A model generated the notes under the pieces. The model did no database searches. It saw only the letters and a list, made by a program, of their open reading frames with translations, and was not told where the DNA came from. Below, one piece after another: positions 7,307 to 27,669 of a DNA stretch of 64,000 bases. The translations under genes were made by a program, and so were the position numbers. This stretch comes from Candidatus Latescibacterota bacterium (GTDB taxonomy: Bacteria; Latescibacterota; UBA2968; GCA-2709665): assembly GCA_965219455.1 (NCBI GenBank), contig OZ244744.1, positions 4,576,001 to 4,640,000 of the forward strand. Direction: 5' to 3'. Every line of letters begins with the position of its first letter. Within the stretch, counting starts at the first letter, position 1.

Positions 7307-7567
7307 CACAGGGAGAGGTCGGTACAGACCGCGTTTGACCGGGCTTGCGAGAGAGCGAAAATTGTCCAGCGGATACCGACGCTACGGCATTCCTTTGCGA
7401 CACACCTGCTTGAACGCGGGACGGACCTGCGATATATCCAGGTGTTGCTCGGGCACGTAAGACCAAAGACCACACAGATCTATACTCGGGTGACGAATGG
7501 GGATCTCGCGAAAATCCAGAGCCCGCTGGATGCATTGATGGAAGAAAGGGAGGCAGTTTTTGATTAG
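7307..7567 (+). pseudogene. intI: Tyrosine recombinase (integron integrase-like) C-terminal remnant
   Basis: Not in the ORF track; reads [60 protein letters not shown]...IQSPLDAL; HxLRH has become PTLRH; N-terminus lost. Confidence 0.85.
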
Positions 7568-7583
7568 AGACCCACCATAGGAA

Positions 7584-7697
7584 GCATTCCTGAACATGTT
7601 CGGGCTACAAGCTTCAGCGTGGAATGTTCCCGAACGTTCGCAGATCTTCGGATCAGGTACGCATTACCGTAACTGTTCGGTAATACCGTAGTTAGCA
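7584..7697 (+). promoter_or_regulatory. attI-like site 1, downstream of the integrase remnant
   Basis: Homologous to 27547-27659 up to taataccgtaGTTA, then diverges; bases after GTT pair with the cassette end at 12142-12156. Confidence 0.75.
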
Positions 7698-7826
7698 GAA
7701 ATCGCCCCCACCACCCCCAGAAGAACCGTGATTGCGTGCAAAAATAGCCCCACCCTCCCCACCATCAACACTCGTTCCTATACTTGGATTTATGCGACAG
7801 CGGAGAAATCCCGAGTCAGATCTTCC

Positions 7827-9535
7827 CTAGCGCGGCTTCGCTTTGCTCAGCCGCAACCAAATAGGTGGTAGTCAAGAGCAGATAGTTTTAGGGTATGCAA
7901 AACGGCGTTCATCCCCTATGATGGTGGTACCCACCGCCATCAATGGAAGGAGGAACGCCGTGAAAGACTTCGTGGACCAATGTAGTGAAAAAATCACCGG
8001 AGTGGTATCCTGTTTTGATCGGGTTCTGTTCAAAGGGTACCTGCCGCTGGGATTTGGAACTGCGATGGAGCGGTTCATCAGCAATCAGGGTTTATTGTTG
8101 AAGGACTTCAAGCGTTTTGTGATGACGCATTCCGATACGATCAAAGCCCACGCGGAGGCGATGGCAAACAAGCACGAGCGCCCGTTCATCTATCTGCAAC
8201 GCAACACCATCAGGAAAGAGGACGAAGCGCGACGGTTGGCAAAACACGATGGGATCACGCAAGGCCTGGTCTGTGTGTTTCGGGCCCTGGAAGGCTGCCA
8301 GAGTTTCAAGCTGGTTCCAGGGGAAGGAAGGCCTCGCCTGATCAACGCACAACGGAAATGCCTATGCTACTACTTTTACTGGATTGACCGGGAGTTCGGG
8401 TTGATGCATATCCGCATCCAGTCCTGGTTCCCGCTGGTGGTGCAGATCTGTCTCAATGGCCACGAGTTCTTGGCGCGCAAGCTCGAGCAACACGGCATCG
8501 CCTATGAAAAATCAGACAACGCTTTTCTATGGATTGCCGATGTGGACCGGGCGCAACGCTTTGCCGATCGTTTTGTGGGCAAGAATTGGCCGCGCATTCT
8601 CTCGGCGTTCGCCCGCAAGGTCAACCCCCTGCTCAAAGACCTGCTTTCGGGCATGGACTACTACTGGGTCGTTGACCAAGCCGAGTTCGCCACCGACGTG
8701 ATGTTCCAAAGCCCCCACGCCCTGAAGGTGCTGTATGAAAACCTGCTCAGACACACGGTGCTGTGCTTCTCTCCCCAGGACATCTTGACCTTCCTGGGCC
8801 GCAAACTCCACGGCAATTTTCAGGGCGAAGTCCTCACGGACTTCAAAAACAAACGCCACAAAGGCGCAAGAGTCAAACACCGGATGTGCGAGAACTGGAT
8901 TAAAATGTACGACAAACACGGGTGCGTACTACGCGTCGAAACAGTGATCAACCATCCAAGGCAGTTCAAGGTCCGCCGCTGGGGCATACGGCGAGGACAA
9001 CGCGTGATGGGCTGGTATCCCATGGCCAAAGGCGTGGCCAACCTCTACCGCTATCGGGAAATCTCGTTGACGGCCAACCAACGCTACTTTCAGGCGCTGT
9101 CCGCAGCCCCTGACGCCGCTACCGGACATCAAAGCCTCACCACACTGGCGCGGCCACGCAGGCACAAGGGACGTACCTATCGGGGCTTCAACCCCGCCGA
9201 CCCTGCCGACCTCGCCCTGTTTACCGCTGTGTTGAAAGGCGAACACGCCCTGATGGGCTTCCGCAACCAGGACATCCGAACACACCTCTTCCAACATCCA
9301 GCATCCCTGCTGCAACGCACTCGGCACGCCAATGCCACCAGCCGCCGCCTCAAACGCCTACACGTCCGCGGCCTTATTGCAAAAATCCCACGGTCCAGAC
9401 GGTGGCGCGTCACACCCGAAGGGCACAAAATACTCGCCTTGTCTTTGACCCTTTACCATCAACACCCTACAACTAAACAAGCAGCATGAATAATTATCTA
9501 CGCATTTTGCGTAGAAGTCACACTGTAAGACTCTA
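7827..9535 (+). mobile_element. IS-like element with subterminal hairpins and no terminal inverted repeats
   Basis: gcggct...agccgc(aaccaaa) hairpin at left, tctacgca-ttt-tgcgtaga at right, CTA at both junctions; lies inside a cassette defined by matched ends; boundaries approximate. Confidence 0.6.
7960..9489 (+). CDS. Putative transposase of an unclassified family with C-terminal winged HTH
   Basis: GGAGG then GTG 7960; SCFDRVLFKG, WIKMYDK..LRVETVIN, GFRNQDIR...RLHVRGLIAKIPRSRRWRVT. Confidence 0.65.
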   Translation: MKDFVDQCSEKITGVVSCFDRVLFKGYLPLGFGTAMERFISNQGLLLKDFKRFVMTHSDTIKAHAEAMANKHERPFIYLQRNTIRKEDEARRLAKHDGITQGLVCVFRALEGCQSFKLVPGEGRPRLINAQRKCLCYYFYWIDREFGLMHIRIQSWFPLVVQICLNGHEFLARKLEQHGIAYEKSDNAFLWIADVDRAQRFADRFVGKNWPRILSAFARKVNPLLKDLLSGMDYYWVVDQAEFATDVMFQSPHALKVLYENLLRHTVLCFSPQDILTFLGRKLHGNFQGEVLTDFKNKRHKGARVKHRMCENWIKMYDKHGCVLRVETVINHPRQFKVRRWGIRRGQRVMGWYPMAKGVANLYRYREISLTANQRYFQALSAAPDAATGHQSLTTLARPRRHKGRTYRGFNPADPADLALFTAVLKGEHALMGFRNQDIRTHLFQHPASLLQRTRHANATSRRLKRLHVRGLIAKIPRSRRWRVTPEGHKILALSLTLYHQHPTTKQAA

Positions 9536-9594
9536 AATCCAAAGCTCGAGATAATTATCAACCATTCGATTGACCGAAAACAAGGGAGGCGAGA

Positions 9595-9711
9595 ATGTTC
9601 GGCATAGGTCTTTGGGAAATCCTGCTTGTCCTCCTCTTGGGCATGATAGGTTTCTGGCTGTGGATGCTCATTGAATGTGCAGTTAAGGAACCGTCCACTA
9701 AACTGGGGTAA
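9595..9711 (+). pseudogene. PLDc_N-like small membrane protein, N-terminal half
   Basis: GGAGG RBS; MFGIGLWEILLVLLLGMIGFWLWMLIECAVKEPST; continues at 11470. Confidence 0.65.
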
Positions 9712-9731
9712 CCCCAGAGAGAGGTGACGCG

Positions 9732-11108
9732 ATGGTACCCTGGATCTTCGTGCACAATCCCCTGGAGCACTGGCTGGACGACTACCCGCGCATCTTCGAC
9801 GCGTGGGAGGCGGGAGGGGTGGGCGGCATCGTGGTGGGACGGATGTGGCTCAGGAACGAGGCCGGCATGCCGTTGTGGGGGGACACCCTCACCCCCTCGT
9901 TTGCGGCGGACCCAAAGGTGTACGCCGCGTTCGGCATCAAGCCGCCCCCGGAAACGGCCCGCACCCCCGAGAGGGAGAAGCAGCTCCACGCGCTCCTCGA
10001 CAACGCCGCCTCCCGGGGCTGGCACATCATGATCTTCGACTCCAGAGACGGGCTCCGGCTGCTCTACCAGCGGGGCCAGGGTACCACCAGCGGCCTAGCC
10101 GAGGAGGAGGACCCTTTCGGGGCCATCGAGGTGGCCGCCGGGGTGCACGACCTGGCCAGTGCCTATCCCCAGGCCCACGGCGTCATCCTGGACCAGCCCG
10201 GTGAGACCTTCTACGAACTTGCCTTCCATCGGGGTAAGGCCCTACTGGAACTGGACGGTCGCATGCGGCACCGCTTGGAAGCCATCGGCGCCGATGTGGA
10301 GCGCGTCGCCCGCGGCATGGCGCACCTGAACGAGCGTTTCCACAACCTGACTCCGGATCTGGTGCGCTACCACGCGTCCGGCGGCATGCTGGGGGCACTG
10401 AACCTGTTCGACCTGAACGAGGATGCCCTGTACTGGCTGCGCGCCCGCCGCGAAGCGGCGCGGGGGTTCATGCGCGCCGTGCACGCGCAGATGCAGAGAG
10501 TGGGAGGGAAGGTGGAGCTGGGGGGCATTCCGCGCACCGCCGCTTTCTCGTCACTGACCGGGCACGAATTTGGCGAGATGGCGGAGTACTTCGACTACGT
10601 CTTCCCCAAGCACTACTTCTGGCACCGCGGGAATGACGGCCTCTACGGCACCATGGCCCGCTGGGTGCAGCAGGTCCTGGACTGGAACCCGACCCTGTTG
10701 GAGGCAGACGGCTTCGCCGTGGTCAAGGCCTTCCTGGGGCTGGAGCTTCCCGGGGTGCAGACCCTGGCGGACATGGAACTGGGGTTCCCCGAGGAGTTCT
10801 ACTCGGAGCTGGTGTACAACGAGACGCGCCGAGCGCTGGAGGCCATCGGGGATGTGAACAAGGTGATCGCCTGGGTGTCGACGGGGCGCCGTCCGCACGG
10901 GGGCGAGCCCATGACCGCCCGCGACCTGCACGGCATCCTGACCGCCTCCGAGCGGGCCGGCCTGCAGCGCTTCCTGTTCCAGCCGGACCCTGATCTGAGC
11001 GCCCCCGAATGGAGCGTGATCTCCGACCTGTGCGGCAAGCGCTGGCACCCGAGCCGCGACGGGTACTGGCCCTCGGACTCCAGCAGGCCCGACGCGTTCA
11101 GCAGGTAG
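9732..11108 (+). CDS. Conserved hypothetical protein (possible TIM-barrel/glycoside hydrolase-like), GC-rich
   Basis: 458 aa ORF with GAGG RBS and strong GC3 bias. Confidence 0.75.
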   Translation: MVPWIFVHNPLEHWLDDYPRIFDAWEAGGVGGIVVGRMWLRNEAGMPLWGDTLTPSFAADPKVYAAFGIKPPPETARTPEREKQLHALLDNAASRGWHIMIFDSRDGLRLLYQRGQGTTSGLAEEEDPFGAIEVAAGVHDLASAYPQAHGVILDQPGETFYELAFHRGKALLELDGRMRHRLEAIGADVERVARGMAHLNERFHNLTPDLVRYHASGGMLGALNLFDLNEDALYWLRARREAARGFMRAVHAQMQRVGGKVELGGIPRTAAFSSLTGHEFGEMAEYFDYVFPKHYFWHRGNDGLYGTMARWVQQVLDWNPTLLEADGFAVVKAFLGLELPGVQTLADMELGFPEEFYSELVYNETRRALEAIGDVNKVIAWVSTGRRPHGGEPMTARDLHGILTASERAGLQRFLFQPDPDLSAPEWSVISDLCGKRWHPSRDGYWPSDSSRPDAFSR

Positions 11109-11469
11109 GCATGCGCCCGTTGCGGGACTTATCTGCGGGATTCGTCGCTTCGCCGACTCGGGGAATCGACGTCCCCAGGAACCGGCTAATCACAACGTGA
11201 TTCACCCAATGCGCCGGAAGGCCCGATCCGCCGCGACCCCTTGGCAACGGACGCCACAGGCCCTGATCCCCGGCCGGCGTTTCCTCCCTGGCACATTGAC
11301 ATCAGGAGACCCCTTACGTATCGTTCAGAGAGATATGACACGTAAGGGAGACTTGACCATTTGTTGCCATCCTGGTCCTGTCTTCTCGCGTTTCCTCGGG
11401 TCTCTGATCTGCCCCTGCGAGCGCATCATGCTGTTGCTGGCATTGGGCGCCCGTCAATGTCAGTGGTAG

Positions 11470-11595
11470 CCTGGGCAGAAGTTGGGTTGGGGCATTACAA
11501 TTCTTGGCTCCAATGTCCTTGGTGCTTCTATCTATTTCTTATTTCGAAGACCTAAGCGGATTCGGGAACGCAATCAGGAATCACTTGAGCCGTAG
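11470..11595 (+). pseudogene. PLDc_N-like protein, C-terminal half
   Basis: PGQKLGWGITILGSNVLGASIYFLFRRPKRIRE...; matches the KxxW...GAxIY..RRP pattern. Confidence 0.65.
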
Positions 11596-12149
11596 CGAAC
11601 ATATCGAGCCTCCCATACACTTCGTGCGTGGTGCTCCGAAGTGACGGCCTCGGACATCGACGTAGAAGATCTGTATTGTCGGGCCATGAGCGCCGTCGCA
11701 AAATAAAGCGCTCCTGGACCCACCTCAACACCACTACCCACACATTGGCCTGTGTCACACCGGTTGCTTGATTTTTACACCTATCGAAGTGGCGAAAAGG
11801 CGACGGAGAAAATTGAATATCCGGCGGAATGCACCTTCGTCTTGTCCAAAAGCTCACTTGCTAATGACTTGACTATGCCGAAGGCTGCGCCCCTACCCAG
11901 AGGGCATGCCGCTAAGTTCGGGATCACTTTGCTCGCGTGCCGCTTGGAGGGGCCACTGCCCTTGCTGGTCCTGACGTGAAGGTTTTGGAGAGATGTCGTG
12001 ATCTCTTCGGTATTGCCTAGGGCTAAACCATTTTTTCGAATCGGATCTCAGGTCATCCCAATCAGATGAGAGGAACCAAACCTATGTCGCACGCTGTATG
12101 TACGCGCCGATCTCCAGGACCGAGAGGGGCGCCACCCCGATGCGACTTC

Positions 12150-12301
12150 TGCTAACACGGGCTATTCGCTCCGGTCGCTTCGCTCCCTCCGGCCCTTCGG
12201 GCACATTCCCCTTTGTCACGTCGCTTGCTGAGAGACGCAAGCGCCGCGCCAATCCGGCTTCGCCGGACCGGGGAACGTCGTATAGCCCGGGAACGTTATC
12301 T
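12150..12301 (+). repeat. Long multi-hairpin attC-like site
   Basis: TGCTAACacgggctat...atagcccgggaacGTTATCT with several internal hairpins. Confidence 0.85.
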
Positions 12302-12330
12302 GCAATTGCCCCAGAGATCGCGATGTCTAC

Positions 12331-12870
12331 GTGAAAACACCTCAACCCCCATCGAAGTGTTGGTTGCATAGCGAAGTGGGAGTCCGAAGATCCGAGATTG
12401 AGGGATCCGGTCTTTTCGCTGAGACCTTAATCACTGCCGGCACGAGGATTCTGCAGTTCGGCGGCGAGATTATCTCTCGAGATAACCTGCTGAAGATGAT
12501 CTCCGCAAGAGAAAGCAACCCTGATCTGCCTTACGTTGACAGTATCAGCGTTGCTGAAGGTCTTGATCTGTTCATTGTACCGAGACAGCAAGTCCATTTC
12601 TTGAATCACAGCTGTGATCCGACTGTTTGGCACGTTGATGCCTTCACTCTGGAATCCCGGAGAGACATACTAAAAAACGAAGAGATTTCAGTAGACTATG
12701 CCACGCAGGCGGATAGTTTTGAGTTCGCGATGAACTGCAATTGTGATTCATCCGAGTGCCGCGGTCTGATTACCGGAGAGGATTGGATGTCAACAATCCT
12801 TCGCACTCGGTACGGCGATCATTGGGTTCCGGTTTTACTCGCTCGAATTCGGGCAACCAAAAACGTTTAA
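12331..12870 (+). CDS. SET-domain protein with post-SET
   Basis: GSGLFA, FLNHSCDP, EEISVDY, CNCDSSECRG. Confidence 0.92.
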   Translation: MKTPQPPSKCWLHSEVGVRRSEIEGSGLFAETLITAGTRILQFGGEIISRDNLLKMISARESNPDLPYVDSISVAEGLDLFIVPRQQVHFLNHSCDPTVWHVDAFTLESRRDILKNEEISVDYATQADSFEFAMNCNCDSSECRGLITGEDWMSTILRTRYGDHWVPVLLARIRATKNV

Positions 12871-12931
12871 TAAAAAACACTGAAGACGACTTCGAGATTC
12901 TTAACGCATCGCATTAGCTAGGGACAACTGC

Positions 12932-13019
12932 AGCTAACACGTCGGGCTGCGGCTCCGGCCCTTTCGGGCCTCCGCAGCAACCTGCTGGCGCAGGTTCGCA
13001 GCCCGCGGGAACGTTATAA
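12932..13019 (+). repeat. attC-like site
   Basis: AGCTAACacgtcgggctgcg...cgcagcccgcgggaacGTTATAA. Confidence 0.85.
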
Positions 13020-13209
13020 GCCATGCCAGCGTTCCTCCAAAAGCAGGCGGCCGTCCTGGCCGCCCAAGAGAATCTCACTACGTTCTTCAGTAGCGGAAAT
13101 TTCGCTTGAAGAACTTAATTAAGATATGTAGATTTATAGCAGGTCTATAGGTGACCAATCGCAGCAGAATTGAACCGTCTTTACCATATTAAAAACAATA
13201 TGATATATA

Positions 13210-13695
13210 ATGATTCCTAAGGTCAACATCGAGACATCTATTCCCAGTTTCTATTACGAAACACGTACAGAACCCGAGATGGCTGCAAAGCGGACTTGGA
13301 CACGCCAGTGGTGGGACGAACGGCGTGAGGGTTATGAGATTTTCACCAGTGAAGCGGTTATCGATGAACTCAGTGGAGGAGAGTATCCTAACAAGGACCG
13401 AGTATTGGCCCTGGTTGCTCCTTTGCCACTGCTGCCAATTGAACGAGAAATCGCTGAGATTGTAGAAGCATATATCCAACACCAGATGATGCCTAGTGAT
13501 CCCCTGGGCGATGCACTCCATCTTGCTACAGCCTCTTATCATAAGTGTGAATTTTTGCTCACATGGAATTGCAATCATCTGGCTAACGCGAATAAGTTTG
13601 CCCACATCAAGCGAGTCAACACTATTCTTGGCTTATATGTGCCCACGTTGGTGACTCCGCTGGAACTCCTAGGAGATATTGAAGATGAAAGATGA
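13210..13695 (+). CDS. PIN-domain (VapC-like) toxin
   Basis: IETSIPSFY, SEAVIDEL, DALHLA, LLTWNCNHLAN. Confidence 0.88.
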   Translation: MIPKVNIETSIPSFYYETRTEPEMAAKRTWTRQWWDERREGYEIFTSEAVIDELSGGEYPNKDRVLALVAPLPLLPIEREIAEIVEAYIQHQMMPSDPLGDALHLATASYHKCEFLLTWNCNHLANANKFAHIKRVNTILGLYVPTLVTPLELLGDIEDER

Positions 13696-13855
13696 TCCGA
13701 CCATTCGTAGGATTCGTGAAGTGCGTCATAGGATTTCGGAGCAATGTGATCACGACCCAGAGAAATTGGTGGCGTATTACATAAGACGCCAGAAAGAGCA
13801 TCCTGAGAAGCTGGTGCGGAAAAGTAGAGAAGAATCGGTGAAACGGGAGACATAA
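13685..13855 (+). CDS. Small putative antitoxin partner (56 aa)
   Basis: MKDDPTIRRIREVRHRISEQCDHDPEKLVAYY; overlaps the PIN gene end; below ORF-track cutoff. Confidence 0.7.
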   Translation: MKDDPTIRRIREVRHRISEQCDHDPEKLVAYYIRRQKEHPEKLVRKSREESVKRET

Positions 13856-13974
13856 TCCCTCGTTCTTCTTTCAAGATTTCCGCTGAATAATTCATTTAGC
13901 GGAAATTCTGTTTCAGCGACAAAGCGGCCTTGCCATCCGTGGCAAGGCCGCCCCCGCCCCCCGGCTGGCACAAC

Positions 13975-14058
13975 ACATAACACGTCCGTGCCCGGCTACG
14001 GGCCATACGGCCCTTCGCGCAACCGCTTCGCGGTTCGGGCACGGCGAAAACGTTAGCC
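13975..14058 (+). repeat. attC-like site (main family)
   Basis: ACATAACacgtccgtgcccg...caaccgcttcgcggttcgggcacggcgaaaacGTTAGCC. Confidence 0.9.
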
Positions 14059-14169
14059 GCAATTAATAGAGCATTGATTTCCATACGTAGTTAGACAGCA
14101 CGAGACAGCCTGTCCGCACTTTTACAGTCCAATTGCGACGCAATTCTTACAGCAACACAAGAGGATATA

Positions 14170-15090
14170 ATGAGTATTGCTACTGAACCCTGCCCTGGGC
14201 AGCTACGCCACCACTCTTACGCCGTGGTGCGCGGTTTGTTCGACGCAGCGACGACAAAACGGCTGCGCGAGATCTGTGAGCGAGTGCTGGAACAGTGGCG
14301 GCGCGCTCCTCGCTGTGACAATCCACCGGTGGGGCCCCAGGCCAATTACATGAGGCACCTGAACGACCCGGAATATCACCGCGATCACCCCGACGATCTC
14401 GCCTTTCTGCTCAATGCCATGGGGTCGCCCCAAGTTGTCGAATCGCTGAGCGCAGCCTTGGATGAAGAATTCCTCTTCGCCTTGAGCAGTCTCTACTGTA
14501 ATCCGACCGGAGAAAGCCAGGACGGATTTTGGCACAAGGACAAGATCGGTGCAGAAGCAGACGTATCCCGGAGACCGGAGACCGGAGCCGGGTTGCAGAT
14601 GCAAATCGCATTGGTCCCTACCGACGATCTCGAATTGGTGCCGGGGTCTCACCTGCGTGACTACTCCCCCGAAGAGCACGCGATCTGCGTCGCCGATGAT
14701 GGGATCCACAACCGCTCGAACGATATGCCTGGCGCCGTTCGTCTCCACCAGGAACCCGGTGACGCGGTGCTGTTTACCCAGTTGTGCATTCATCGGGGCC
14801 GCTATCACACCGACAAGCTCAGGCGCTCGTTGATGATCTCGGTAAAAAAACGGGCCGCCGCAGAGTTCACGATGCGCCAGCGGGGGCTGAACTACGCCAG
14901 TGACCAGCCATGGTTTTTGCTGCCGCAATACTTCGATGGCGTCAGTGAGGATGCGCGAGCGTTCTTCCAGGAATTCGTCGGCTTCTACGCCCCGCATTGG
15001 CGCGCCCGGCTGACGGAGGTGTTGAAGTACTCGAGTCTGGTACAAAGCCTGGTGGAAGCCGGCGAGCCGTACCCGTTTTTTGGTGAATGA
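14170..15090 (+). CDS. Phytanoyl-CoA dioxygenase (PhyH) family 2OG-Fe(II) oxygenase
   Basis: WHKD, LVPGSH, PGDAVLF, IHRG. Confidence 0.85.
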   Translation: MSIATEPCPGQLRHHSYAVVRGLFDAATTKRLREICERVLEQWRRAPRCDNPPVGPQANYMRHLNDPEYHRDHPDDLAFLLNAMGSPQVVESLSAALDEEFLFALSSLYCNPTGESQDGFWHKDKIGAEADVSRRPETGAGLQMQIALVPTDDLELVPGSHLRDYSPEEHAICVADDGIHNRSNDMPGAVRLHQEPGDAVLFTQLCIHRGRYHTDKLRRSLMISVKKRAAAEFTMRQRGLNYASDQPWFLLPQYFDGVSEDARAFFQEFVGFYAPHWRARLTEVLKYSSLVQSLVEAGEPYPFFGE

Positions 15091-15169
15091 GAAGTCTGTC
15101 TGAATGAGTTAGCGGCTACATTTTGATACATAAGGCCCCGACAATGAACGGATACGAATTAATCACGAC

Positions 15170-15270
15170 GGCTAACACCGGCTTTACGCTTCGGGGCATC
15201 CGCCCCTCGGCCCTGCGGGCACATGGGCCTTTGGGACTGGCCCACGTCGTAAAGCCAAGAACCGTTAACC
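15170..15270 (+). repeat. attC-like site
   Basis: GGCTAACaccggctttacg...cgtaaagccaagaaccGTTAACC. Confidence 0.85.
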
Positions 15271-15447
15271 GAAAGCGGCGCAAGTGTTCCCAGCCACATT
15301 ACCCCAAAAAATCGCGCACAAAAGGCAACAACCACCTTATTTTGAAGTCTTCCACGGCGAATAAACTGTATCAAGTTTTTCGGCTACGAATGGAATATGC
15401 CGAACTTTCTCCGCAGAATCACAAGTCAGGCCGTGCGGAGGTCCACT

Positions 15448-16575
15448 ATGAAGTGGGAACTGCTGCATCCGGACCAGGAGCAAGCCGAGGATGTACCCTG
15501 TAGGCGGGCGGCCTTCGGCGGGATGTTGAGCTACAATGGATGCGTCTACCTGTTCGGGGGGATAAAAGTGATGTACGGCCGGCCGAAAGGGCCTGGAGAT
15601 CTTTCCGTCCAGGGCTCATTGAACGACCTGTGGCGCTACGACCCGGATCGAGGCCGGTGGACGCGGTTGGAAGACCACGATGGGCGCATCGGGTTCAGAC
15701 CGTCCGATACCAGACCGTGTACCCGGAAGCTCACGACCTGGCTGCCCGTGAACGGCAGGCTTTATCTTTTTGGCGGGTCCTCAGTGCGGGGCCCCGGCAA
15801 GAGGGAGATCAAGCTGAACGATCTCTGGGCCTACGATCCGAAGACAGCCTCGTGGGAGCTGTTAGAGCCCGACGACGGGCGGGCATCAGGAATAACGGCG
15901 GATGGGCATCGTCCCGCCGGTTCGGGCGGGATGGGGGCGGCCGTTCTGGGTGATTACCTGTATCTGATGGGGGGACATGGCGCGATGACGCACGCACAGC
16001 TGTGGACCTACAAGGCGCCGGCCGGGAAATGGGAGCACCTGGGGCCTGCATCGAATGGACGCAACGGTTGGCCGCCGAAACGATACTGTCCCGTGCTGGC
16101 CGGCTGGAACGGCAGGCTCTACCTGTGGGGCGGTCGGGACAGTCAGGGTCGAGCGCCGGAGTTCTACAACGATCTGTGGGAATACGATCCCGACGGAGGC
16201 GCCTGGACCTGCATTCAGGAGAACCGGTCGGATGATGTTGCACGGCCTTCCCCTCGGTACGGGCTGGGATACGCTGTGATCGGAGATCACCTGTATCTGT
16301 TCGGAGGATTTGCAGGAGGGGAAGGGGAGCACCCCCAGCTGAACGATCTGTGGCAGTACGATCTTCGTGCCGGCCGGTGGGACTGTCTATATCCACACAA
16401 CGGTGCGGAGGATTACTCTGCTGGCGCCGAACGTCCCGGTGTCAGGCGAATCCCCGTTATGACAGTGGGGGGCGAGTCCGTCTATCTCTTCGGGGGGCTG
16501 GATCTGGCTACCGGGCCGCACGGGGACGGGCCGCTGGCGGCGTACAACGATTTCTGGCACGGAACACCGGCCTGA
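15448..16575 (+). CDS. Kelch-repeat protein, copy 2
   Basis: Near-identical to 3268-4395. Confidence 0.9.
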   Translation: MKWELLHPDQEQAEDVPCRRAAFGGMLSYNGCVYLFGGIKVMYGRPKGPGDLSVQGSLNDLWRYDPDRGRWTRLEDHDGRIGFRPSDTRPCTRKLTTWLPVNGRLYLFGGSSVRGPGKREIKLNDLWAYDPKTASWELLEPDDGRASGITADGHRPAGSGGMGAAVLGDYLYLMGGHGAMTHAQLWTYKAPAGKWEHLGPASNGRNGWPPKRYCPVLAGWNGRLYLWGGRDSQGRAPEFYNDLWEYDPDGGAWTCIQENRSDDVARPSPRYGLGYAVIGDHLYLFGGFAGGEGEHPQLNDLWQYDLRAGRWDCLYPHNGAEDYSAGAERPGVRRIPVMTVGGESVYLFGGLDLATGPHGDGPLAAYNDFWHGTPA

Positions 16576-16604
16576 TAGGGCATTTCTTAAAGGAGATTCC
16601 GTAG

Positions 16605-16694
16605 TTGCATGCGAAGACCGAAGTCGATCCGATCCGGTTCGAGGTGATCCGCAACGCGCTGCTGAAAGCGACGGAGGAGATGGCGATTGCGCTA
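16605..16694 (+). pseudogene. Hydantoinase B/oxoprolinase N-terminal fragment (30 codons) fused to unrelated sequence
   Basis: VDPIRFEVIRNALLKATEEMAIAL. Confidence 0.7.
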
Positions 16695-17230: not shown

Positions 17231-17231
17231 G

Positions 17232-19121: not shown

Positions 19122-19199
19122 CACGTCCGTGCCCGGCTTCGGGCCATTCGGCCATTCGCGCAACCGCTACGCGGTTCGGGCACGGAGAAAACGTCGCAC
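19116..19199 (+). repeat. attC-like site (right core GTC)
   Basis: GCATAACacgtccgtgcccg...gggcacggagaaaacGTCGCAC. Confidence 0.88.
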
Positions 19200-19256
19200 G
19201 AAAAATGAGGGCCTGGTCAATCAATTGGCCGGCACTGTTCACAGATAGCGTGAAAT

Positions 19257-20024
19257 ATGGGTTTAGACGAGCATGTTGCTACATGGAAAGGTGAAGAGGA
19301 ACAACCCTTCTTGGGATGGGACTTTTCCTATCTGGATGGCAGGATGTTAGAAGGGCAAGCTCCATGGTCGTATTCTTCACGGGCTGCCGAGCTCATGCGT
19401 CGATGCTCGTCTGTCATTGACCTGGGAACAGGTGATGGTGAGAGGTTCCTGAACTTACAGGAATTTTGGCCAAAAGTGGTTGTGGCAACGGAGGAATATG
19501 CACCTAACCTCAAGTTGGCAACAGAACGTCTCGTTCCATTGGGAGCGAAAGTTGTAGATGTTCGATTGACTGATTGCGATTCAGTGCCTCTTTTCGATCG
19601 CAAGTTTGATCTCGTTCTAAATCGCCATTCCGCCTTCAATCCCAATGAAGTTGCCCGTATTCTCACGCCTGGCGGTACATTCCTGACACAGCAAGTTCAC
19701 GGGTTATGGGCCTATGACTTACTGGCAGCGTTTGACGCTAAACCGCAATGGCCCGGATCCACCCTTGAAAGGTATGTGGCTCAATTGAGAACGACGGGCC
19801 TGACTATTCTCAATGCCGAAGACTGGTCTGGCCGGCTGGCTTTCGCCGACGTGGGCGCCGTGGTCTATTACTTGAAGGCTGTTCCCTGGCTGGTTCCTGG
19901 GTTTTCAGTCGAAACGCACGTGGAGTTCCTGTTAAGGCTGCAACGCCGTCTTGACAGCGGCGATGGGTTGGCTTTCGCAGCGAGGAAATTCCTGATTGAA
20001 GGGCAAAAGGAGGGGCCAGCTTGA
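19257..20024 (+). CDS. Class I SAM-dependent methyltransferase
   Basis: GWDFS, DLGTGDGE, FDLVLNRH, GGTFLTQQV. Confidence 0.9.
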   Translation: MGLDEHVATWKGEEEQPFLGWDFSYLDGRMLEGQAPWSYSSRAAELMRRCSSVIDLGTGDGERFLNLQEFWPKVVVATEEYAPNLKLATERLVPLGAKVVDVRLTDCDSVPLFDRKFDLVLNRHSAFNPNEVARILTPGGTFLTQQVHGLWAYDLLAAFDAKPQWPGSTLERYVAQLRTTGLTILNAEDWSGRLAFADVGAVVYYLKAVPWLVPGFSVETHVEFLLRLQRRLDSGDGLAFAARKFLIEGQKEGPA

Positions 20025-20058
20025 AAGGCGCCAAATGGTATCGATTGTGATCGTTTTC

Positions 20059-20171
20059 GTGTGACAGCGCGGTGTTGTGCTGCGGCGCGGAGCCTGTCCT
20101 GAGCCTGCCGAAGGGCGCCCTGGCCTTCGGCAACCCGCTTCGCTGGTTCGGCAATCGGTGAGACGTCACAC
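20059..20171 (+). repeat. attC-like site (GAC/GTC cores) containing a REP-like unit
   Basis: GTGTGAC...gagcctgtcctgagcctgccgaaggg...GTCACAC. Confidence 0.78.
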
Positions 20172-20240
20172 GCAAGCGGGGCCAGATATGGTAAGGATAT
20201 GAGTGGTGTGTCCTCCACCGCTTCTGACGGAGGTCTTTTT

Positions 20241-20867
20241 ATGCATGTATACGTAGTCTTCGCGCACCCTACGAGGAGGTCTTTTACCGGGGAGGTTTTG
20301 GACGAATTGTGTCGAGGATTCGACGATGGAGGACATTCATACGAGATCGGGGACTTGTATGAAATGGACTTCAAATGCGAAATGCACCTGGATGAGTACA
20401 CTCGCGAGATGAACGTCCAGGGTAATCGCTCCGCCCTCCCCATACCATCGGACGTGGAAGTCGAACACAGCAAGATCAGCAGGGCAGACGGCCTGGCCTT
20501 TGTTTTTCCCGTTTGGTGGAGCGACTGTCCGGCAAAGTTGAAGGGATGGTTCGACCGGGTTTGGGTCTGCGGATACGCCTACGAGTACCAGTTTGCCAGG
20601 GAGACCTATCCGTTTCCGCGACTCTCAGTCGAAAGGGCTCTCGTTCTCTGTCCGGTGGGTAATACTCTAGAGGGTCTGGAAGAGACTGGTATTGCTGAAG
20701 CCATGAGGCGGTTATACACACATGATCGCCTCCGCCCTGACGCGGGTGTGAAGCATTGTGAGTTCGCACTCCTTCCCGGAATGGCAGATCACTTTGCAAC
20801 ATCGAGCAACAGGGCAAGGAATCTTGAGACCGCGTATCAGTATGGCAGGAACTTCCTGATGAAGTGA
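20241..20867 (+). CDS. Flavodoxin-fold NAD(P)H dehydrogenase (quinone)
   Basis: VFAHP..SFT, FPVWWSDCPAKLKGWFDRV. Confidence 0.9.
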   Translation: MHVYVVFAHPTRRSFTGEVLDELCRGFDDGGHSYEIGDLYEMDFKCEMHLDEYTREMNVQGNRSALPIPSDVEVEHSKISRADGLAFVFPVWWSDCPAKLKGWFDRVWVCGYAYEYQFARETYPFPRLSVERALVLCPVGNTLEGLEETGIAEAMRRLYTHDRLRPDAGVKHCEFALLPGMADHFATSSNRARNLETAYQYGRNFLMK

Positions 20868-20960
20868 AGCAACGTGAAACGCCAGCCTCATTCGATCTGA
20901 GGATGTAGCTGGTTTGCGGCCTCGTCTTCCTGGAAAGCAGCACGATAGTCCCTGGCACGC

Positions 20961-21047
20961 GTGTATCAGCAGCACGTGCGGCTCGGGCCATCCCGGCCCT
21001 CACCCAACTTGCCTTCGGCAGGTTCGCAAGTGCGCGGAACGTAATCG
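20961..21047 (+). repeat. attC-like site (degenerate)
   Basis: GTGTATC...aacttgccttcggcaggttcgc...aacGTAATCG. Confidence 0.65.
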
Positions 21048-21056
21048 GCAATAGTT

Positions 21057-21941
21057 TTGGGGCAGGTCATGATTTATGGCTGCGACGGACTTGAATCGCG
21101 AATAGCGGACCTGACCGGACGAGAAGTGGACCGGCTGCTACCGGTTCAGGGAGGTTACACAAACGCCTGCCGAAGAATCGTGAAATTCCGGGACGGAAAC
21201 ACGGCATTTGCGAAGTGTGCTACGGACCGGCGCACCAGTGGGTGGCTATATTCTGAGATTTCGATCTATCGCCAGCTTTCCGGCGATTTCATGGCGGCCG
21301 TTTTAGCGTGGGATGAGGAGGAACCTCCGTTGCTTCTATTGGAAGATCTGAGCGGGAACCCATGGCCTCCGCCCTGGACTGCTCCTGGTGTCGATATGGT
21401 TCTCGACAGCCTGGCGATGATACATGAAAGCCAGGCGAGTGTGCCCGAATATCGCGAGATCTTCACTCATGGAGGTTGGCACGAAGTTGCGGCGCACCCG
21501 GAGGCCTTCCTGTCGATACGCGTTGCAAGTGAATCGTGGTTGACAACGTGTCTACCCACCCTCCTGGAGGCGCATGATAGCGTTGAACCTGGAGGCAAAG
21601 CGCTTGTCCATCTTGACGTGAGAAGCGATAACGTCTGCTTTCGTGCCGACCGGGCCGTTTTAATCGACTGGAACAACGCCTGCTCCGGCAATCCCGATCT
21701 CGACATTGCCTTCTGGCTGCCCAGCCTTCACCACGAGGGCGGGCCGCCTCCACAGGATATTCTTTCGGGCGCCGGTCACCTGGCGTCGTACGTTACGGGG
21801 TATTTGGCTTCGCGTGCGGGGTTGCCGGACCTGCCTCATACACCGTTGGTTCGCAATCTGCAGAAGGCGCAGCTGAATGCAGGGCTTCAGTGGACGGTTC
21901 AGGAACTTGGACTACCTGAACCGGACATGATGGGAAGATGA
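21057..21941 (+). CDS. APH/choline kinase-like phosphotransferase
   Basis: HLDVRSDN, LIDW; start may be ATG 21069. Confidence 0.85.
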   Translation: MGQVMIYGCDGLESRIADLTGREVDRLLPVQGGYTNACRRIVKFRDGNTAFAKCATDRRTSGWLYSEISIYRQLSGDFMAAVLAWDEEEPPLLLLEDLSGNPWPPPWTAPGVDMVLDSLAMIHESQASVPEYREIFTHGGWHEVAAHPEAFLSIRVASESWLTTCLPTLLEAHDSVEPGGKALVHLDVRSDNVCFRADRAVLIDWNNACSGNPDLDIAFWLPSLHHEGGPPPQDILSGAGHLASYVTGYLASRAGLPDLPHTPLVRNLQKAQLNAGLQWTVQELGLPEPDMMGR

Positions 21942-21977
21942 ATGTCTTTGGCGTGACCCGAACGGGAAGGAGGTAAC

Positions 21978-22754
21978 GTGGCTGGGAAAGATTTCGACAG
22001 GTTTGTCAATCTCGACTCCATCGCGGATGGCTTCTTCAGAGACGCCGTCGTGGGCCACGTCTCGGTGTATTGCGAAGTATTCGCAGAACGGCTTGTCTCA
22101 GTCTATGTGTGGGGAAGTGTTCACCGGAATGAAGCAGTACCCGAAGTTTCCGATCTTGACCTGCATCCGTTTATCCTGGACTCCGTCACCGATGCGGACA
22201 GGTTCCAGTTGCGGGATTCCGAGGCATCCCTTCAAGAGGAGTTCCTCGCGACTCATGGGCTTGTGACACCGCGATCTGTTGACAGGGTATCCGAGGTCGC
22301 AACGCGCCTCCGCTACGACGCCACGCTCGTCTGGGGAGAGGATCTGATTAAAGGGATGGAGATTCCACCCCCCGATCCCGTCGGCGCGTTCCGCGACCCA
22401 CGGGAGCTTGTTCGATATGCAGCGGGATTGCGGGAGGAGAACACAACCGACTTCTCCCTTCCTGACGAGCCCTCATTGCGCCTCCGTAAGCTCGGACGCC
22501 TGGCCGTGCTGGGTGGCGGGTATCTCCTCATGGCAAGCGGAGGCGGGTATTCCCTCAAGGGGTCGGAGGTTCTTCCGCTGCTGGAAGAGGTCTCTCCAGA
22601 TTGGCGAGGATTTCTGAGGAAAACTTCTGAAATCTATGTTCATCCCGTCCAACCGAGCGAGAGCGAGGTAGACGAATATCTGTCTCAACTGGTTGAGTGG
22701 ATGGAATGGATCGAAGATCAACTGCAGGATGAGTCAGCTGTGAGCCGCACCTGA
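21978..22754 (+). CDS. Nucleotidyltransferase-domain protein
   Basis: VYVWGSVHRNEAVPEVSDLDL; AGGAGG RBS. Confidence 0.8.
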   Translation: MAGKDFDRFVNLDSIADGFFRDAVVGHVSVYCEVFAERLVSVYVWGSVHRNEAVPEVSDLDLHPFILDSVTDADRFQLRDSEASLQEEFLATHGLVTPRSVDRVSEVATRLRYDATLVWGEDLIKGMEIPPPDPVGAFRDPRELVRYAAGLREENTTDFSLPDEPSLRLRKLGRLAVLGGGYLLMASGGGYSLKGSEVLPLLEEVSPDWRGFLRKTSEIYVHPVQPSESEVDEYLSQLVEWMEWIEDQLQDESAVSRT

Positions 22755-22820
22755 TCCGCGCCATCATCGCGAATGGGCGATCATTAACACTGAACGAAAG
22801 AGGCTGGCAAGGGCGACTTC

Positions 22821-22909
22821 CGCGAACAAGCAGGACTTCGGCTCCGGCGCATTCGAACGTCCGACCTGACTTGCTTGCGGAAAGTTCGCAGCCCGAGCGG
22901 GCGTTTTCG
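22821..22909 (+). repeat. attC-like site (degenerate)
   Basis: gACttccgcGAAC...gttcgcagcccg...GTTTTCG. Confidence 0.65.
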
Positions 22910-22940
22910 GAAATAGACTCATTCGAGGGAGTTACCAACG

Positions 22941-23708
22941 TTGAGCGAAGACGTCAGACGTTTTTACGATGACTTAGCTGCTGATTACCATCACGTTTAC
23001 GCAGAGTGGGAATCGGCAATCGAACGGCAGTCGTGTGTACTGGATCGGTTGATTCAACGTGAATCGTCAGTAGATGCATCGCTTGTCCTGGACTGTACAT
23101 GTGGAATAGGCACCCAGGCAATTGGCCTGGCGCGGCGAGGATACGAAGTCTTCGCGTCCGATCTTAGTCCGAAGGCGATTGCCAGGGCGAAATCAGAAGC
23201 AGCTAACCGGGGACTGACGGTTGAATTCGCCGTTGCCGATGTTCGTGAGGTGGAATGTGCCTTCGCCCACAAATTTGACGTCGTAATAAGTTGTGATAAC
23301 TCACTACCGCATCTCTTGACTGACGAAGACTTGACCCTCGCTCTCCGAAGCATTCGGCGCACACTTGCGGGTAATGGACTGTTTATTGCCAGTACTCGCG
23401 ATTACGATTGGCTGCTCGCGGAAAGACCGTCGTTTATGGGTGCGAACGTTCAGGATGTACCGGAGCGCGAGGTCATATCGTTTCAGATCTGGGACTGGTC
23501 GAAGGAATCAGATACCTATTTGATTCGGCTTTTCATAATGAGCCAGAAACCGAGTGGATGGCAAGTAAGAGAGGTTAGGACTCGCTACCGGGCGATTCGG
23601 CGCAAGGAGCTCACTCTAGCCCTGGAGTCCGCCGGATTCTCGAAAATCGCCTGGCATACACCTGAACAGTCTGGTTATTTTCAACCCGTTGTGACGGCGC
23701 ATGCCTAA
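22941..23708 (+). CDS. Class I SAM methyltransferase (glycine/sarcosine N-methyltransferase-like)
   Basis: LDCTCGIGTQ, FDVVISCDNSLPHL. Confidence 0.88.
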   Translation: MSEDVRRFYDDLAADYHHVYAEWESAIERQSCVLDRLIQRESSVDASLVLDCTCGIGTQAIGLARRGYEVFASDLSPKAIARAKSEAANRGLTVEFAVADVREVECAFAHKFDVVISCDNSLPHLLTDEDLTLALRSIRRTLAGNGLFIASTRDYDWLLAERPSFMGANVQDVPEREVISFQIWDWSKESDTYLIRLFIMSQKPSGWQVREVRTRYRAIRRKELTLALESAGFSKIAWHTPEQSGYFQPVVTAHA

Positions 23709-23721
23709 TAGAGTCTACTTC

Positions 23722-23810
23722 CGATAACAGCACGTTTTGCGCTACGGCGCTGATCGCGCCTTGGCCTTCGGCAACCGCTTCGCGGTTCCCAAACCGGCAT
23801 AACGTTACAC
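23722..23810 (+). repeat. attC-like site
   Basis: CGATAAC...ggccttcggcaaccgcttcgcggtt...aacGTTACAC. Confidence 0.85.
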
Positions 23811-25566: not shown

Positions 25567-25640
25567 TCTCTTTTTCAGCCCGTTTTCGGCGGACATAGGG
25601 CGTCGGCCACACGCCTCGTGGCCAGGAATAGCAGGTCGTG

Positions 25641-27303
25641 ATGACCAAATCTCTCCTGAATCACCCCACTCTCGAGGTCAATCGCAAACAGGCCAAAGCT
25701 CTCGTTCGGGATTTCGCCGCCGGCATCCCCGAAAGCCATCGCTTGTGTCCCGGAGCAGCTTCCCGGACGTGTGAAACCCATCACGGGACGCGACGCTCAG
25801 TTCGTGATCGCACGGGAGTCCGGTTATCACGGATGGACAGCGTAGAGGTCGGCTACTATGGGCAAATCTGCTGAATTGAAGTGGGCAGTAGAAGCGGCCG
25901 AGAAGGCCATCCACGCCAACGATACCGCTCGCCTGGACAGCCTCCTTGCGGAGCACCCGGGTCTGCTCACGTGGCGCAATCCGGACGACGAGCGCCCCGT
26001 TCTGCTTTACGCTACCACCTCCTACGCCAACTTTCCCGGCGCCGAGAATGAAGTTGTCTTCAACCGGCCCGACTGTGCCCGCCTGTTGATTGAAGCTGGC
26101 GCGGTTATGCATCCCCGGGTCTACTTGAGGGCAATCGACACCGGTGCACACGGCATGCTGGCGCTGTTTGACGAATACGGCGTACTGCCGGAAAACCTGC
26201 GTACGTTGACCGCGAGGGGCGATCTCGATAGGGTGCGGGGATGTTTCGACCCTGCCGGCGTCCTGCGCAACGTCGGTCGCCCGGAGGCGGAACTGCGCAC
26301 CGGGTACACCGGCGCCGAGGCGGACTGGCCCGATCCCGCGGATGATCGGTTGATCGTCGCCGACGCGTTTCTCTACGCCTGCCGGCTGGGTCATCGCGAC
26401 ATCGCGCATTTACTGATGGATCGTTGCCTTCAGCTCGACGACAATCTTCGGACGCGCGTGGCGGCATGGCAGGGGAAAACGGCCTTTGTCGATTACCTGC
26501 TGGAGAAGCGGCCAGAGGGGGGAAGACAGGCGCGTTCCTACCGGGAGGCGAACGACGACCCCGGTCTGATCTGGCGTCGGGCCGTGGAACTGCGCCTGCT
26601 CGCCGCCCTGGACGAGGGCAACGCGGAATCCATCCGCGATCTGCTCGCGACCGAATCTTTCCTCCTGGGCCCCCGCTATCTCGAGACCCAGGAAATGATG
26701 CTTGCAGCCGCGGCCTGCTCCGAGGGAAAACTGCCGGTAATCGAAGCCGTGATCACGGCCGGCGCGGCCATCGCCACGGTGGATGAACCGCCGGTGTCTC
26801 GCGCCGTCCTCTATGCTCTCGAATACGGGAATGCCGACTACGTTCCGGCCTTGTCGCAAATCTGGCCCGTGCCTGACGATCTGCCCCACGCTGCCGGTCT
26901 GGGCAACCTGGAGGCAGTCGAAAAGAGGTTCGCCGACGGCTATCCGCAGTTGGGCGATCCATCCTTGTATGCCTGCCCACCCGGGGAATCACCATTGGCC
27001 AGCGTTCAGGAGATCGTCGATAGGGCTTTGGCCTGGGCGGTGCAGAACGGGAACTACCAGATCGCGGACTATCTCCTGGATCACGGCGCGAATATCAACA
27101 CGAGATGGAGTACCCACGAGCCGGCAAGCATCCTGCACGAATGCGTCTTCGCCGGCCGCATGGAACAGGTCGTGTATCTCGTTCGCAAAGGGATCGACGT
27201 GACCCTCAGGGATCATCGACACGATGCCACCCCGGAAGACTGGGCACGGCACGCGGGACAAAAGGAAGTCGCCGAATATCTGGCGGGATTGAAAGGTACG
27301 TGA
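25641..27303 (+). pseudogene. Ankyrin-repeat protein; N-terminus disrupted (intact ORF 25858-27303)
   Basis: PTLEVNRKQAK...DAQFVIARESGYHGW N-terminus broken by a frameshift and a TAG; ALAWAVQNG, LLDHGANIN, ILHEC ankyrin motifs. Confidence 0.75.
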
Positions 27304-27460
27304 TCTGCGGTTTCGTTTGCCCTGTTTAACAAGCTCATCCGGCGGACTGTGGAGAATCCCGGCTGTTTCGACCAGCCTTGACGGGGGTGAAGCTGAGTCA
27401 AATTCAAATTACATGCGCCGGCATCGGGAAATAACCTTCATGTTGGGCAATTCTGCATAC

Positions 27461-27527
27461 GGATCTCGCAAGAACCCAAAGGCACCTTGATGTAATAATG
27501 AATGAGAATGAAGCAGAATGCGATTAA
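27461..27527 (+). pseudogene. Second, highly eroded integrase 3' end
   Basis: DLARTQRHLDVIMNENEAECD* aligns codon for codon with [21 protein letters not shown] at 7502-7567. Confidence 0.7.
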
Positions 27528-27546
27528 GGACGGTAGCTGATTAATT

Positions 27547-27659
27547 GCATTCCTGAACATCTTCGGCTACAAGCTCCAACGTAACATGCTTTCGAACGTT
27601 CGCAGATCCTCCGACCAGATACGAATTACCGTTGCTGTTTTGTAATACCGTAGTTATAG
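27547..27659 (+). promoter_or_regulatory. attI-like site 2
   Basis: gcattcctgaacat...ggctacaagct...cgaacgttcgcagatc...taataccgtaGTTATAG; homologous to 7584-7697. Confidence 0.75.
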
Positions 27660-27669
27660 GAAATGCCAA

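Follow-up and report, generated by a model that had tools for sequence, protein, structure and literature searches.

An integron-like attC array with five recombinase-stub/attI modules, linked to insertion-less relatives of the integron integrase, in a Latescibacterota chromosome

The 64,000-nucleotide stretch analysed here (the window; G000:C1:4576001-4640000) comes from the chromosome of a Candidatus Latescibacterota bacterium (assembly GCA_965219455.1), a genome available as a single contig of 5.84 Mb, and lies within a long array of attC-type recombination sites in which 3' remnants of a tyrosine-recombinase gene, each followed by an attI-type site, recur. This is probably a sedentary, degenerate, multi-platform integron-like array of inverted layout, run by a relative of the integron integrase IntI that lacks the IntI-specific insertion; its recombinase-attI modules would have moved like cassettes, and their genes would then have decayed. 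A preliminary description of the window had reported two co-oriented integrase-3'-end/attI units embedded in the array between window positions 7307 and 27659. Both are there, and a whole-genome blastn search with the site raised the count to five co-oriented copies, each made of a recombinase 3' remnant and an attI-type site of ~125 bp. The DNA-level hallmarks of an integron, namely a structured attC array, crossovers at G/TT and circularly permuted cassettes, are present; since the DNA side passes the integron tests that we ran while the protein side fails the test for IntI, we file the system as integron-like and not as an integron. For comparison we used the 15 genomes of the genus and a wider set of 61 relatives, in which individual genomes are designated G001, G003, G011, G013 and so on.

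All five modules lie on the + strand. Module c1 (junction at genome position 4547792) heads the array, with no attC match upstream of it in a 300-kb search with either of two covariance models (R1 and R2), and keeps approximately residues 280-372 of a 376-amino-acid relative (elsewhere placed at 278-372). Module c2 (junction 4557298) has residues 107-192 fused out of frame to residues 321-372; c3 (junction 4583694, window 7694; module at window 7289-7694) retains approximately residues 278-372; and c4 (junction 4603656, window 27656; module at window 27461-27656) retains a few codons, as does c5 (junction 4733802), which comes 62 kb after the main array's last attC and is at the head of a small array of its own with 3-4 further sites. 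The embedded placement first described thus holds for c2, c3 and c4, and not for c1 and c5, each at the head of an array; c3 and c4 are the only modules within the window. Pairwise identity is 89-92% among c1, c2 and c3 and 69-83% between these and c4 and c5. In each of the five copies, and likewise at the intact genes of G047, G044 and G013, the attI-type site adjoins the recombinase 3' end. Two weak partial matches to the site were found elsewhere by blastn, at genome positions 2047810 and 2530121; the latter, where 27 nt (2530121-2530147) match the site's end, lies 12.8 kb upstream of three co-oriented attC matches that form a second small cluster (2542942-2546677), and may be a sixth, nearly erased platform.

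The details of c3 and c4 agree with what had been noted from the window. The c3 remnant (7289..7567, + strand) contains the recombinase C-terminus reported at 7307-7567 as an open frame of 86 amino acids with no internal stop (7307-7564, HRERSVQ...TTQIYTRV..., behind a TAG at 7304-7306); it matches positions 107-169 of 172 of Pfam Phage_integrase, the C-terminal third, with E 4.6e-15, and the remnant protein is 95% identical to its counterpart in G011 and G013. The attI-type site of c3 (7568..7694, +) carries the AAC/GTT-centred repeats GAACATGTTC, CGAACGTTCG and CCGTAACTGTTCGG and ends CCGTAG/TTA, with the crossover between G7691 and T7692 (GTT, 7691-7693). At c4, the eroded copy of ~22 codons at 27461..27527 (+) is recognizable by DNA-level alignment only and was missed by tblastn with a full-length relative; its attI-type site (27528..27656, +) has the crossover between G27653 and T27654 (GTT, 27653-27655). 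As claimed, the two sites are homologous, with 82.9% identity over 111 bp (7584-7694 against 27547-27656, E 2e-25), and both finish CCGTAGTTA, where similarity is lost; in all five modules, homology stops precisely at CCGTnGTT/A. Neither attC model matched the attI-type site at E≤0.1, and an Rfam search of window 6000-29000, attI-type sites included, returned no match at the same threshold.

The attC-type sites were identified with two covariance models, R1, seeded with eight repeats from the window, and R2, made from the R1 matches. Three earlier attempts at home-made finders, using R''/R' complementarity with minimum-free-energy folding or L''/L' 7-mers, gave false positives or like counts on both strands (257 versus 261) and were abandoned for the covariance models. 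Over 300 kb around the window, R2 found 52 attC-type sites from genome position 4550739 to 4736800, all 52 on the + strand; 28 lie inside the window and 10 inside the interval 7307-27659, between c3 and c4 (starts at 12150, 12932, 13975, 15170, 16861, 19116, 20059, 20961, 22821 and 23722; span 12150..23810, +). In the whole genome at E≤0.001, 38 of 42 attC matches fall in 4550739-4734913. The sites are 65-152 nt long (median 89), follow one another at a median spacing of 1150 bp, start with nnnTAAC, end with GTTAnnn and would fold into an outer stem with two inner hairpins. Their alignment has 89.6% of its cells paired and compensatory changes at 17 of 18 model pairs, figures favoured by the alignment having been fitted to its own model; none of 500 shuffles matched this structure, and slid registers gave 26-47% paired. 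Co-oriented hairpins bounded by AAC...GTT, conserved in structure and variable in sequence, are what distinguishes an integron's attC array, and this is what we found. Between the sites, 64 of 79 non-overlapping open reading frames (ORFs) of at least 70 amino acids are on the + strand; their products include GNAT, methyltransferase, APH-type, NUDIX, HAD, DUF2442 and similar proteins, a content typical for integrons.

In integrons, the 5' end of a cassette (TTRRRY) pairs with the R'' box of the cassette's own attC. Among 44 pairs of neighbouring sites less than 3.5 kb apart, which are not wholly independent of one another, as some cassettes are duplicated, the reverse complement of R'' equalled the preceding junction at positions 4-7 in 19. 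It equalled the site's own 3' junction in 2 of the 44, and among 2653 non-adjacent pairs the share was 2.2%; the cassettes are thus circularly permuted units cut between G and TT, as in integrons. The same pairing extends to the attI-type sites: the junction 7-mer is complementary to the R'' of the next attC at 7 of 7 positions at c1, c2, c3 and c4 and at 5 of 7 at c5, where the background for 7 of 7 in the array is 1.4% of the 2653 non-adjacent pairs (naive binomial for four of five junctions, 2e-7). At c3, GTTAGCA is complementary to TGCTAAC of the attC at 12150, and at c4 GTTATAG is complementary to CTATAAC of the attC at 28370, both 7/7. The crossover therefore lies at G/TT, where it had been placed from the pairing of the bases behind the sites with the far end of the first cassette.

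Comparison with relatives suggests that gene and site travel together. At the position of c1, G011 has a nearly complete recombinase gene with a frameshift, directly behind the same peptidoglycan-binding-type gene as in our genome; c1 is the original platform position. The counterpart of c2 in G013 is a 333-amino-acid gene with all catalytic motifs that lacks the N-terminal ~105 residues of longer relatives. The c2 block, which consists of DUF4160, DUF2442 and coiled-coil ORFs, the recombinase gene and attI, starts exactly at GTT, is found behind an attC in our genome and behind the c1' attI in G013, and ends at the GTT of attI, after which different cassettes follow in the two genomes. This could reflect movement of the block or the entry of cassettes at c1, and both imply site-specific exchange at attI and attC sites.

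A block of this kind could also mean that the recombinase gene is mere cassette cargo, its ~125-bp "attI" an unusual attC and the copies ordinary duplicates, with no dedicated platform. The GTT boundaries on both sides of the c2 block and its two contexts fit such an explanation, as do the position of c3 between an attC and its own site, an R''-like GCATTAAC ~30 nt before GTTATGC in the c2 site, and the centre of the c4 site, which matches the attC model better than the rest of the 3.9 kb around it, if not significantly (E 0.39). We nevertheless regard it as unlikely, as neither attC model finds the site at E≤0.1, and its sequence is conserved across two families (G047 and G044), whereas attC sites vary. 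It also stands at array heads directly after non-cassette genes (c1 after the peptidoglycan-binding-type gene, in G011 too), has no attC upstream of it in G047 and G044, and is followed by sequences that vary among genomes, as for a preferred entry point. The c4 match concerns the inner hairpins of the attC model (27559-27607) and hints that attI and attC may share sequence elements.

Full-length members of the recombinase family are ~376 amino acids long (e.g., that of G047). On the IntI models they stay below the cut-offs (TIGR02249, 214.0 bits for G013 and 214.2 for G047, cut-off 265; NF011946, 140.3 and 139.8 bits, cut-off 435), whereas canonical IntI of relatives reaches up to 469 bits on TIGR02249; they also miss the cut-offs for XerC (TIGR02224, 184-194 bits, cut-off 335) and XerD (TIGR02225, 180-186 bits, cut-off 330) and fall just short of that for XerA (NF040815, 218.6 and 215.7 bits, cut-off 220). 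The best solved relative is VchIntIA (IntI4, 2A3V), both by sequence (phmmer E 2.8e-43, in two stretches) and by the fold of a predicted structure (Foldseek E 1e-15, 34% identity, model pLDDT 83). Between the two phmmer stretches, 27 residues of the query (217-243) stand opposite 69 of IntI4 (171-239), and a MAFFT alignment places the ~45-residue IntI-specific insertion in all four canonical IntI of relatives and in none of eight family members; the insertion, for which a check of full-length homologues had been proposed, is thus absent. The C-terminal SPLD tail is common to the family and IntI and is not found in Xer. A maximum likelihood tree of 25 hand-picked rows unites canonical IntI, the array-linked clade, members from other phyla and an IS91-type clade in one group apart from the two Xer genes of our genome (support 100/100); as it has no outgroup and only these two Xer rows, it speaks for the group as a whole and not for sister groups or the order inside it. 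The family fits an insertion-less "integron-like" subgroup of simple tyrosine recombinases. It is large (at least 7321 members among 8000 scored candidates at E≤1e-20), and NCBI often labels its members "site-specific tyrosine recombinase/integron integrase."

At their N terminus, full-length proteins have an additional beta/alpha domain of ~95 residues, of which the first ~75 are predicted with confidence to form a beta-beta-alpha-beta-beta-alpha unit (domain model pLDDT 81). Of three members compared with Pfam HARP, one exceeded the cut-off of 25 (26.7 bits), another scored 20.2 and that of G047 15.2. Structural matches of the modelled domain are weak: XPB (E 0.047) and the HARP domain of SMARCAL1 (E 0.099) with Foldseek; UvsW (Z 6.5), XPB (Z 5.7) and HARP (Z 4.5) with VIA-align, in a range that the tool calls common; and scores of at most 0.86 in the ESM Atlas. 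The HARP domain and the N-terminal domains of XPB and UvsW bind branched DNA, and the domain may read structured DNA in place of the I2 helix of IntI.

Family members are found next to arrays of this type. In G047, an intact gene of 376 amino acids has three attC sites downstream and none in 6 kb upstream, and in G044 an intact or nearly intact gene has three downstream and none upstream. Within short flanks of 21 loci of the clade outside our genome, attC sites are co-oriented with the gene at ~14, opposite at one (G016) and absent at six; of 80 metagenome contigs with family members, seven have matches to an attC model tuned to the present lineage, five of them downstream and co-oriented and two upstream of a divergent gene, which is the classical layout. 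The inverted-integron layout proposed in the preliminary description therefore holds as far as co-orientation and a 3' attI go, in G047 and G044 as well, and gives way on the identity of the enzyme as an integron integrase (no insertion; 214 versus 265 bits). The result that it had named beforehand as fatal, full-length homologues clustering with Xer or phage integrases and never beside cassette arrays, was not what we saw: they adjoin cassette arrays and group with canonical IntI, apart from the two Xer genes.

Of the 61 relatives, 6 have a canonical IntI; the genus, with 15 genomes, has none. G015, G016, G020, G057 and G058 have 28-46 attC matches each and no canonical IntI; 75 kb around the canonical intI genes of G017, G060 and G054 yielded a single attC match. 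By these sequence counts, attC abundance tracks this recombinase rather than canonical IntI. The array might still have been built by a canonical IntI since lost, with the stubs and their ~125-bp ends left behind by some unrelated integrative element whose targets are attC or GTT, much as IS1111-attC elements and group IIC-attC introns target attC in known integrons. Apart from the 6 of 61 relatives with canonical IntI, this explanation draws on the transposon-borne members of the wider recombinase group: the multi-copy genes of G020 and G017 (283-284 amino acids, a separate clade, left out of the linkage counts) have a downstream zinc-finger ORF, an arrangement that we take to be of the IS91 type, and IS91 and IS3 members are described in the available part of bioRxiv 10.1101/542381. 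In G017, moreover, such a gene directly follows a canonical intI. It is nonetheless improbable that the modules arose in this way. Behind the gene of the array-linked clade there is an attI-type site with cassettes and no transposase, that is, no IS91-type arrangement; the pairing of the junction 7-mers with the following attC shows that the site itself recombined with cassettes; no second element end was seen; and the attC type is scarce near canonical intI and abundant in genomes without it. We infer that the junctions are the work of this recombinase rather than of a canonical IntI since lost. The G017 locus is of interest in its own right: canonical intI (G017:C1:2480001-2500000, 13504-14517, ~465 bits on TIGR02249) stands directly before a gene of the same strand (14891-15742) that encodes an insertion-less recombinase from the IS91-type clade, and the pair occurs twice in that genome.

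That the embedded sites served as several entry points, as first proposed, is borne out by orthologous sites. The ~110-bp site was found in 13 of the 14 other genomes of the genus, often repeatedly, and all matches stop at the crossover (query 406-425). Alignment with the c4 orthologues of G001, G003 and G006 holds as far as CCGyAGTTA, beyond which the sequences are unrelated; four different sequences, GTTATAGG, GTTAGGCG, GTTATGTG and GTTATATG, follow in our genome, G003, G001 and G006, respectively, diverging right after GTTA, and this embedded site therefore acted as an entry point. In G006, the attI of the c4 orthologue is separated from the methyltransferase cassette by a GNAT-like cassette of ~0.9 kb, whose R'' CATATAAC matches the junction GTTATATG at 8 of 8 positions.

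Copying solely through segmental duplication and homologous recombination, with embedded sites that never were entry points, would account for the homology of c1 and c3, which begins at about the same 5' point (372 bp, 88.7% identity; likewise for c1' and c3' of G013), for the c1 of our genome, which appears to combine the flank of G013 c1' with the 3' part of G013 c2' (98.7%), and for the presence of duplicated cassettes, but it has little probability given the four sequences that split exactly at GTTA behind the c4 orthologues, the four of five junctions that perfectly match the attC of the cassette behind them, and copies that differ by 8-30% and in their truncations. The duplicated cassettes comprise a Kelch-repeat gene (window 2932-4395 and 15397-16575, 12,180 bp apart, ~98% identity) and a PhyH cassette (window 14049-15283 and genome 4550848-4552060).

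Several observations do weigh against an array run by the insertion-less recombinase with modules that moved like cassettes. In G016, a family member of 322 amino acids lies inside an attC array on the opposite strand (G016:C1:1710001-1730000, 12459-13424), and many genomes of the genus have attC sites and attI-type sites and no detectable recombinase remnant. The class is not devoid of canonical IntI (6 of 61 genomes), so a lost canonical integrase could be the origin of the attC sites; and the IntI-specific domain, thought to be needed for handling folded attC, is absent from the family, so that the enzyme's cognate role is read from linkage. The nearly identical 5' truncation of c1 and c3 fits the copying of an already broken module, possibly via homologous recombination, and at least one copy was therefore made after the gene had broken. 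To the left of c4, no attC was found in 3.6 kb (23800-27460) even with the filters off. The attC beside the c4 orthologue of G006 has lost its 3' half, and the locus is thus not a clean empty/filled pair. Finally, both attC models derive from this very array.

With these points taken into account, the mechanism that we propose for the multi-platform array is as follows. The recombinase gene is directed at the cassettes, with the attI-type primary site directly behind its stop codon. In the usual divergent layout, intI is outside the interval between recombination sites, whereas in a co-oriented layout any upstream site encloses the gene and attI in an excisable interval. Modules so enclosed could be carried, excised or re-inserted like cassettes, with attI as the 3' site of the block; new cassettes could then enter at any attI copy, and the recombinase genes would decay afterwards. 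According to the accessible part of PMC4792948 (Escudero et al.), reactions at the L box would leave a cassette with attI on its downstream side, an outcome normally blocked by the way in which I2 interacts with extrahelical bases; lacking I2, an enzyme might escape such control. How the modules were copied is something we infer, and a broader proposal is offered more tentatively still, at rather less than even confidence: that an insertion-less lineage, with a HARP/XPB-like N-terminal domain replacing the I2 helix, runs genuine attC arrays in Latescibacterota and, judging from metagenome contigs, beyond, and that its gene-plus-attI module moves like a cassette and so gives an array several entry points.

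In the present genome the array is now frozen, without a resident recombinase. Searches of the genome with the remnant, TIGR02249 and a full-length relative found no intact copy, only remnants and two Xer-like genes that are 31-34% identical to the family; no enzyme of this family and no canonical IntI is available here in cis or in trans. The expectation of no activity in cis was therefore correct, and that of activity in trans finds no candidate in the genome. Across window 1-17741, our genome differs from G011 and G013 by IS-size insertions and one rearranged block only. Identity among the three genomes is 97.8-99.9% in the array and 88-92.6% in the chromosomal flank upstream of it, which suggests, from sequence identity, that array segments may have been exchanged recently between species.

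The block around c3 is bounded on the left by an attC (6388..6470, +; R' GTTGACT; 65.9 bits with R1, 54.4 with R2) whose R'' GTCTAAC is complementary to the preceding junction at 4 of 4 positions, and carries an ORF of the HIT family (6456..6998, +; Pfam HIT, E 1.9e-19). Between this ORF and the recombinase remnant lies one copy (7013-7081) of a 69-nt repeat whose second copy (31201-31269, 99% identity) is found in an otherwise unrelated cassette; the repeat carries TTTCAA-16 nt-TATAAT. A sigma-70 scan of window 6950-7900 gave one promoter-like site against 0.8 expected and no terminator, and thus lends no support to a cassette promoter in the c3 remnant, with the proviso that sigma-70 may not be the promoter type of this organism. 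Derivation of c3 from a c2-type gene was considered from a 14-nt identity, TTGCTCCCGTTTTT, between DNA upstream of c3 and the c2-type leader, and rejected as too weak (E 0.002 in a small search). The first cassette behind c3 (7692..12301, +) ends in the attC at 12150-12301 (42.6 bits with R2) and is split by an insertion sequence (IS) of 1703 bp (7830..9532, +), which is not part of the platform, occurs in 11 genome copies of 93-100% identity and contains a 548-amino-acid ORF with no match in Pfam or NCBIfam; it may represent an undescribed transposase family. The IS is absent from this spot in G011, in G013 and in the contigs of three of the four metagenome runs compared in detail (joint 7826-9533). 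The first cassette behind c4 (27654..28452, +) contains a methyltransferase ORF (27670-28335; Pfam Methyltransf_25, E 1.2e-21) and ends in an attC at 28370-28452 (67.2 bits). An attC-like inverted repeat near 27318-27400, left of c4, was sighted by eye only.

The c3 junction is identical in G000, G003, G011 and G013, and its first cassette is present in 12 of 14 genomes of the genus. No clean empty c3 site was found among them; in G004 and G010 the cassette lies behind an attC, and its first ~140 nt differ. Population data came from metagenome contigs, in which joints often fall inside attC repeats and may be assembly effects. At least 20 of 24 runs contain some part of the c3 region, and seven (X2-X5, X8, X11 and X13) are labelled sponge metagenome. 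In run X19, a single contig at depth 16.5 has the 3' end of another attC joined to position 7691, which is weak evidence that the first cassette of c3 also occurs behind an attC. A joint of 7698 to 14049 (one run, side 30) was set aside as ambiguous, since GTTAGC is common to both sides.

Elsewhere in the array, two DDE transposase genes (DUF772 and DDE_Tnp_1) lie back to back at window 45161-46528 (-) and 46706-48049 (+), with few attC matches around them. Putative resistance-like cassette ORFs include one of the aminoglycoside 3-N-acetyltransferase family (window 62846-63961, PF02522, E 5.7e-64) in what is an environmental genome, and there are three of the predicted APH phosphotransferase family (21057-21938, 33720-34694 and 42440-43396). 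Ankyrin- and Kelch-repeat cassettes would fit a host-associated lifestyle, which is a mere impression.

If the linkage is functional, cassette capture of the integron type would be older or broader than the IntI clade, and many integrase-less attC arrays (CALIN, clusters of attC sites lacking integron integrases) may have an unrecognized recombinase. A "chicken-and-egg" question of the origins of attC and I2 is raised in the part of PMC4792948 available to us. If our reading is true, the family would bear on it as a living case in which cassettes are recombined without I2, and its natural proteins would make the need for I2 in handling folded attC testable. In the literature outside subscription journals and supplements, we found no report that connects attC arrays with insertion-less relatives of IntI or describes several recombinase-stub/attI modules in one chromosomal array, and nothing on such arrays, by title or abstract, that pairs integron with Latescibacter.

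Two features define an integron, an integrase with a unique extra domain and a single attI; the present system departs from integrons in three respects, a linked recombinase without that domain, several attI in one array, and a gene and attI that travel as a cassette-like block. Like the sedentary chromosomal integrons of the Vibrio type, it spans ~100 kb or more, has attC sites of one type with a conserved structure, holds accessory genes and is interspersed with IS. Vibrio-type integrons differ in having a divergent intI, one platform and canonical IntI. With CALIN it shares an attC cluster without a functional integrase and with pseudogene remains beside it; intI pseudogenes are reported near 15 of 279 CALIN in the part of PMC4889954 that we draw on, and unlike those, the remains here are multiple, each keeps its attI, and none would match an IntI-specific profile, because the family lacks that domain. 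The insertion is described as specific to IntI in the accessible part of bioRxiv 10.1101/542381, which sets apart an "integron-like" subgroup of close IntI relatives without it; our tree likewise groups the family with canonical IntI and IS91-type copies, whereas that part of the source names only recombinases of IS91 and IS3 transposons and no attC arrays or attI. In the delta-attI-type cassettes of mobile class 1 and 2 integrons, shown to be functional (PMC12901181, in part), a full or partial attI likewise stands inside an array as the 3' site of a cassette-like unit; those described there are short attI remnants beside resistance genes, served by an intact canonical IntI1, whereas the units here also carry recombinase remnants, belong to another recombinase lineage and are chromosomal. 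The inverted, or Treponema-type, chromosomal integrons, with the layout described in the parts of PMC3607928 and PMC4889954 consulted and only one attI per integron according to the former, are alike in the co-orientation of recombinase gene, primary site and cassettes, in a long sedentary array and in a crossover in GTT; theirs is a canonical IntI with the extra domain, whereas here that domain is absent and there are five stub/attI modules, three of them inside the array.

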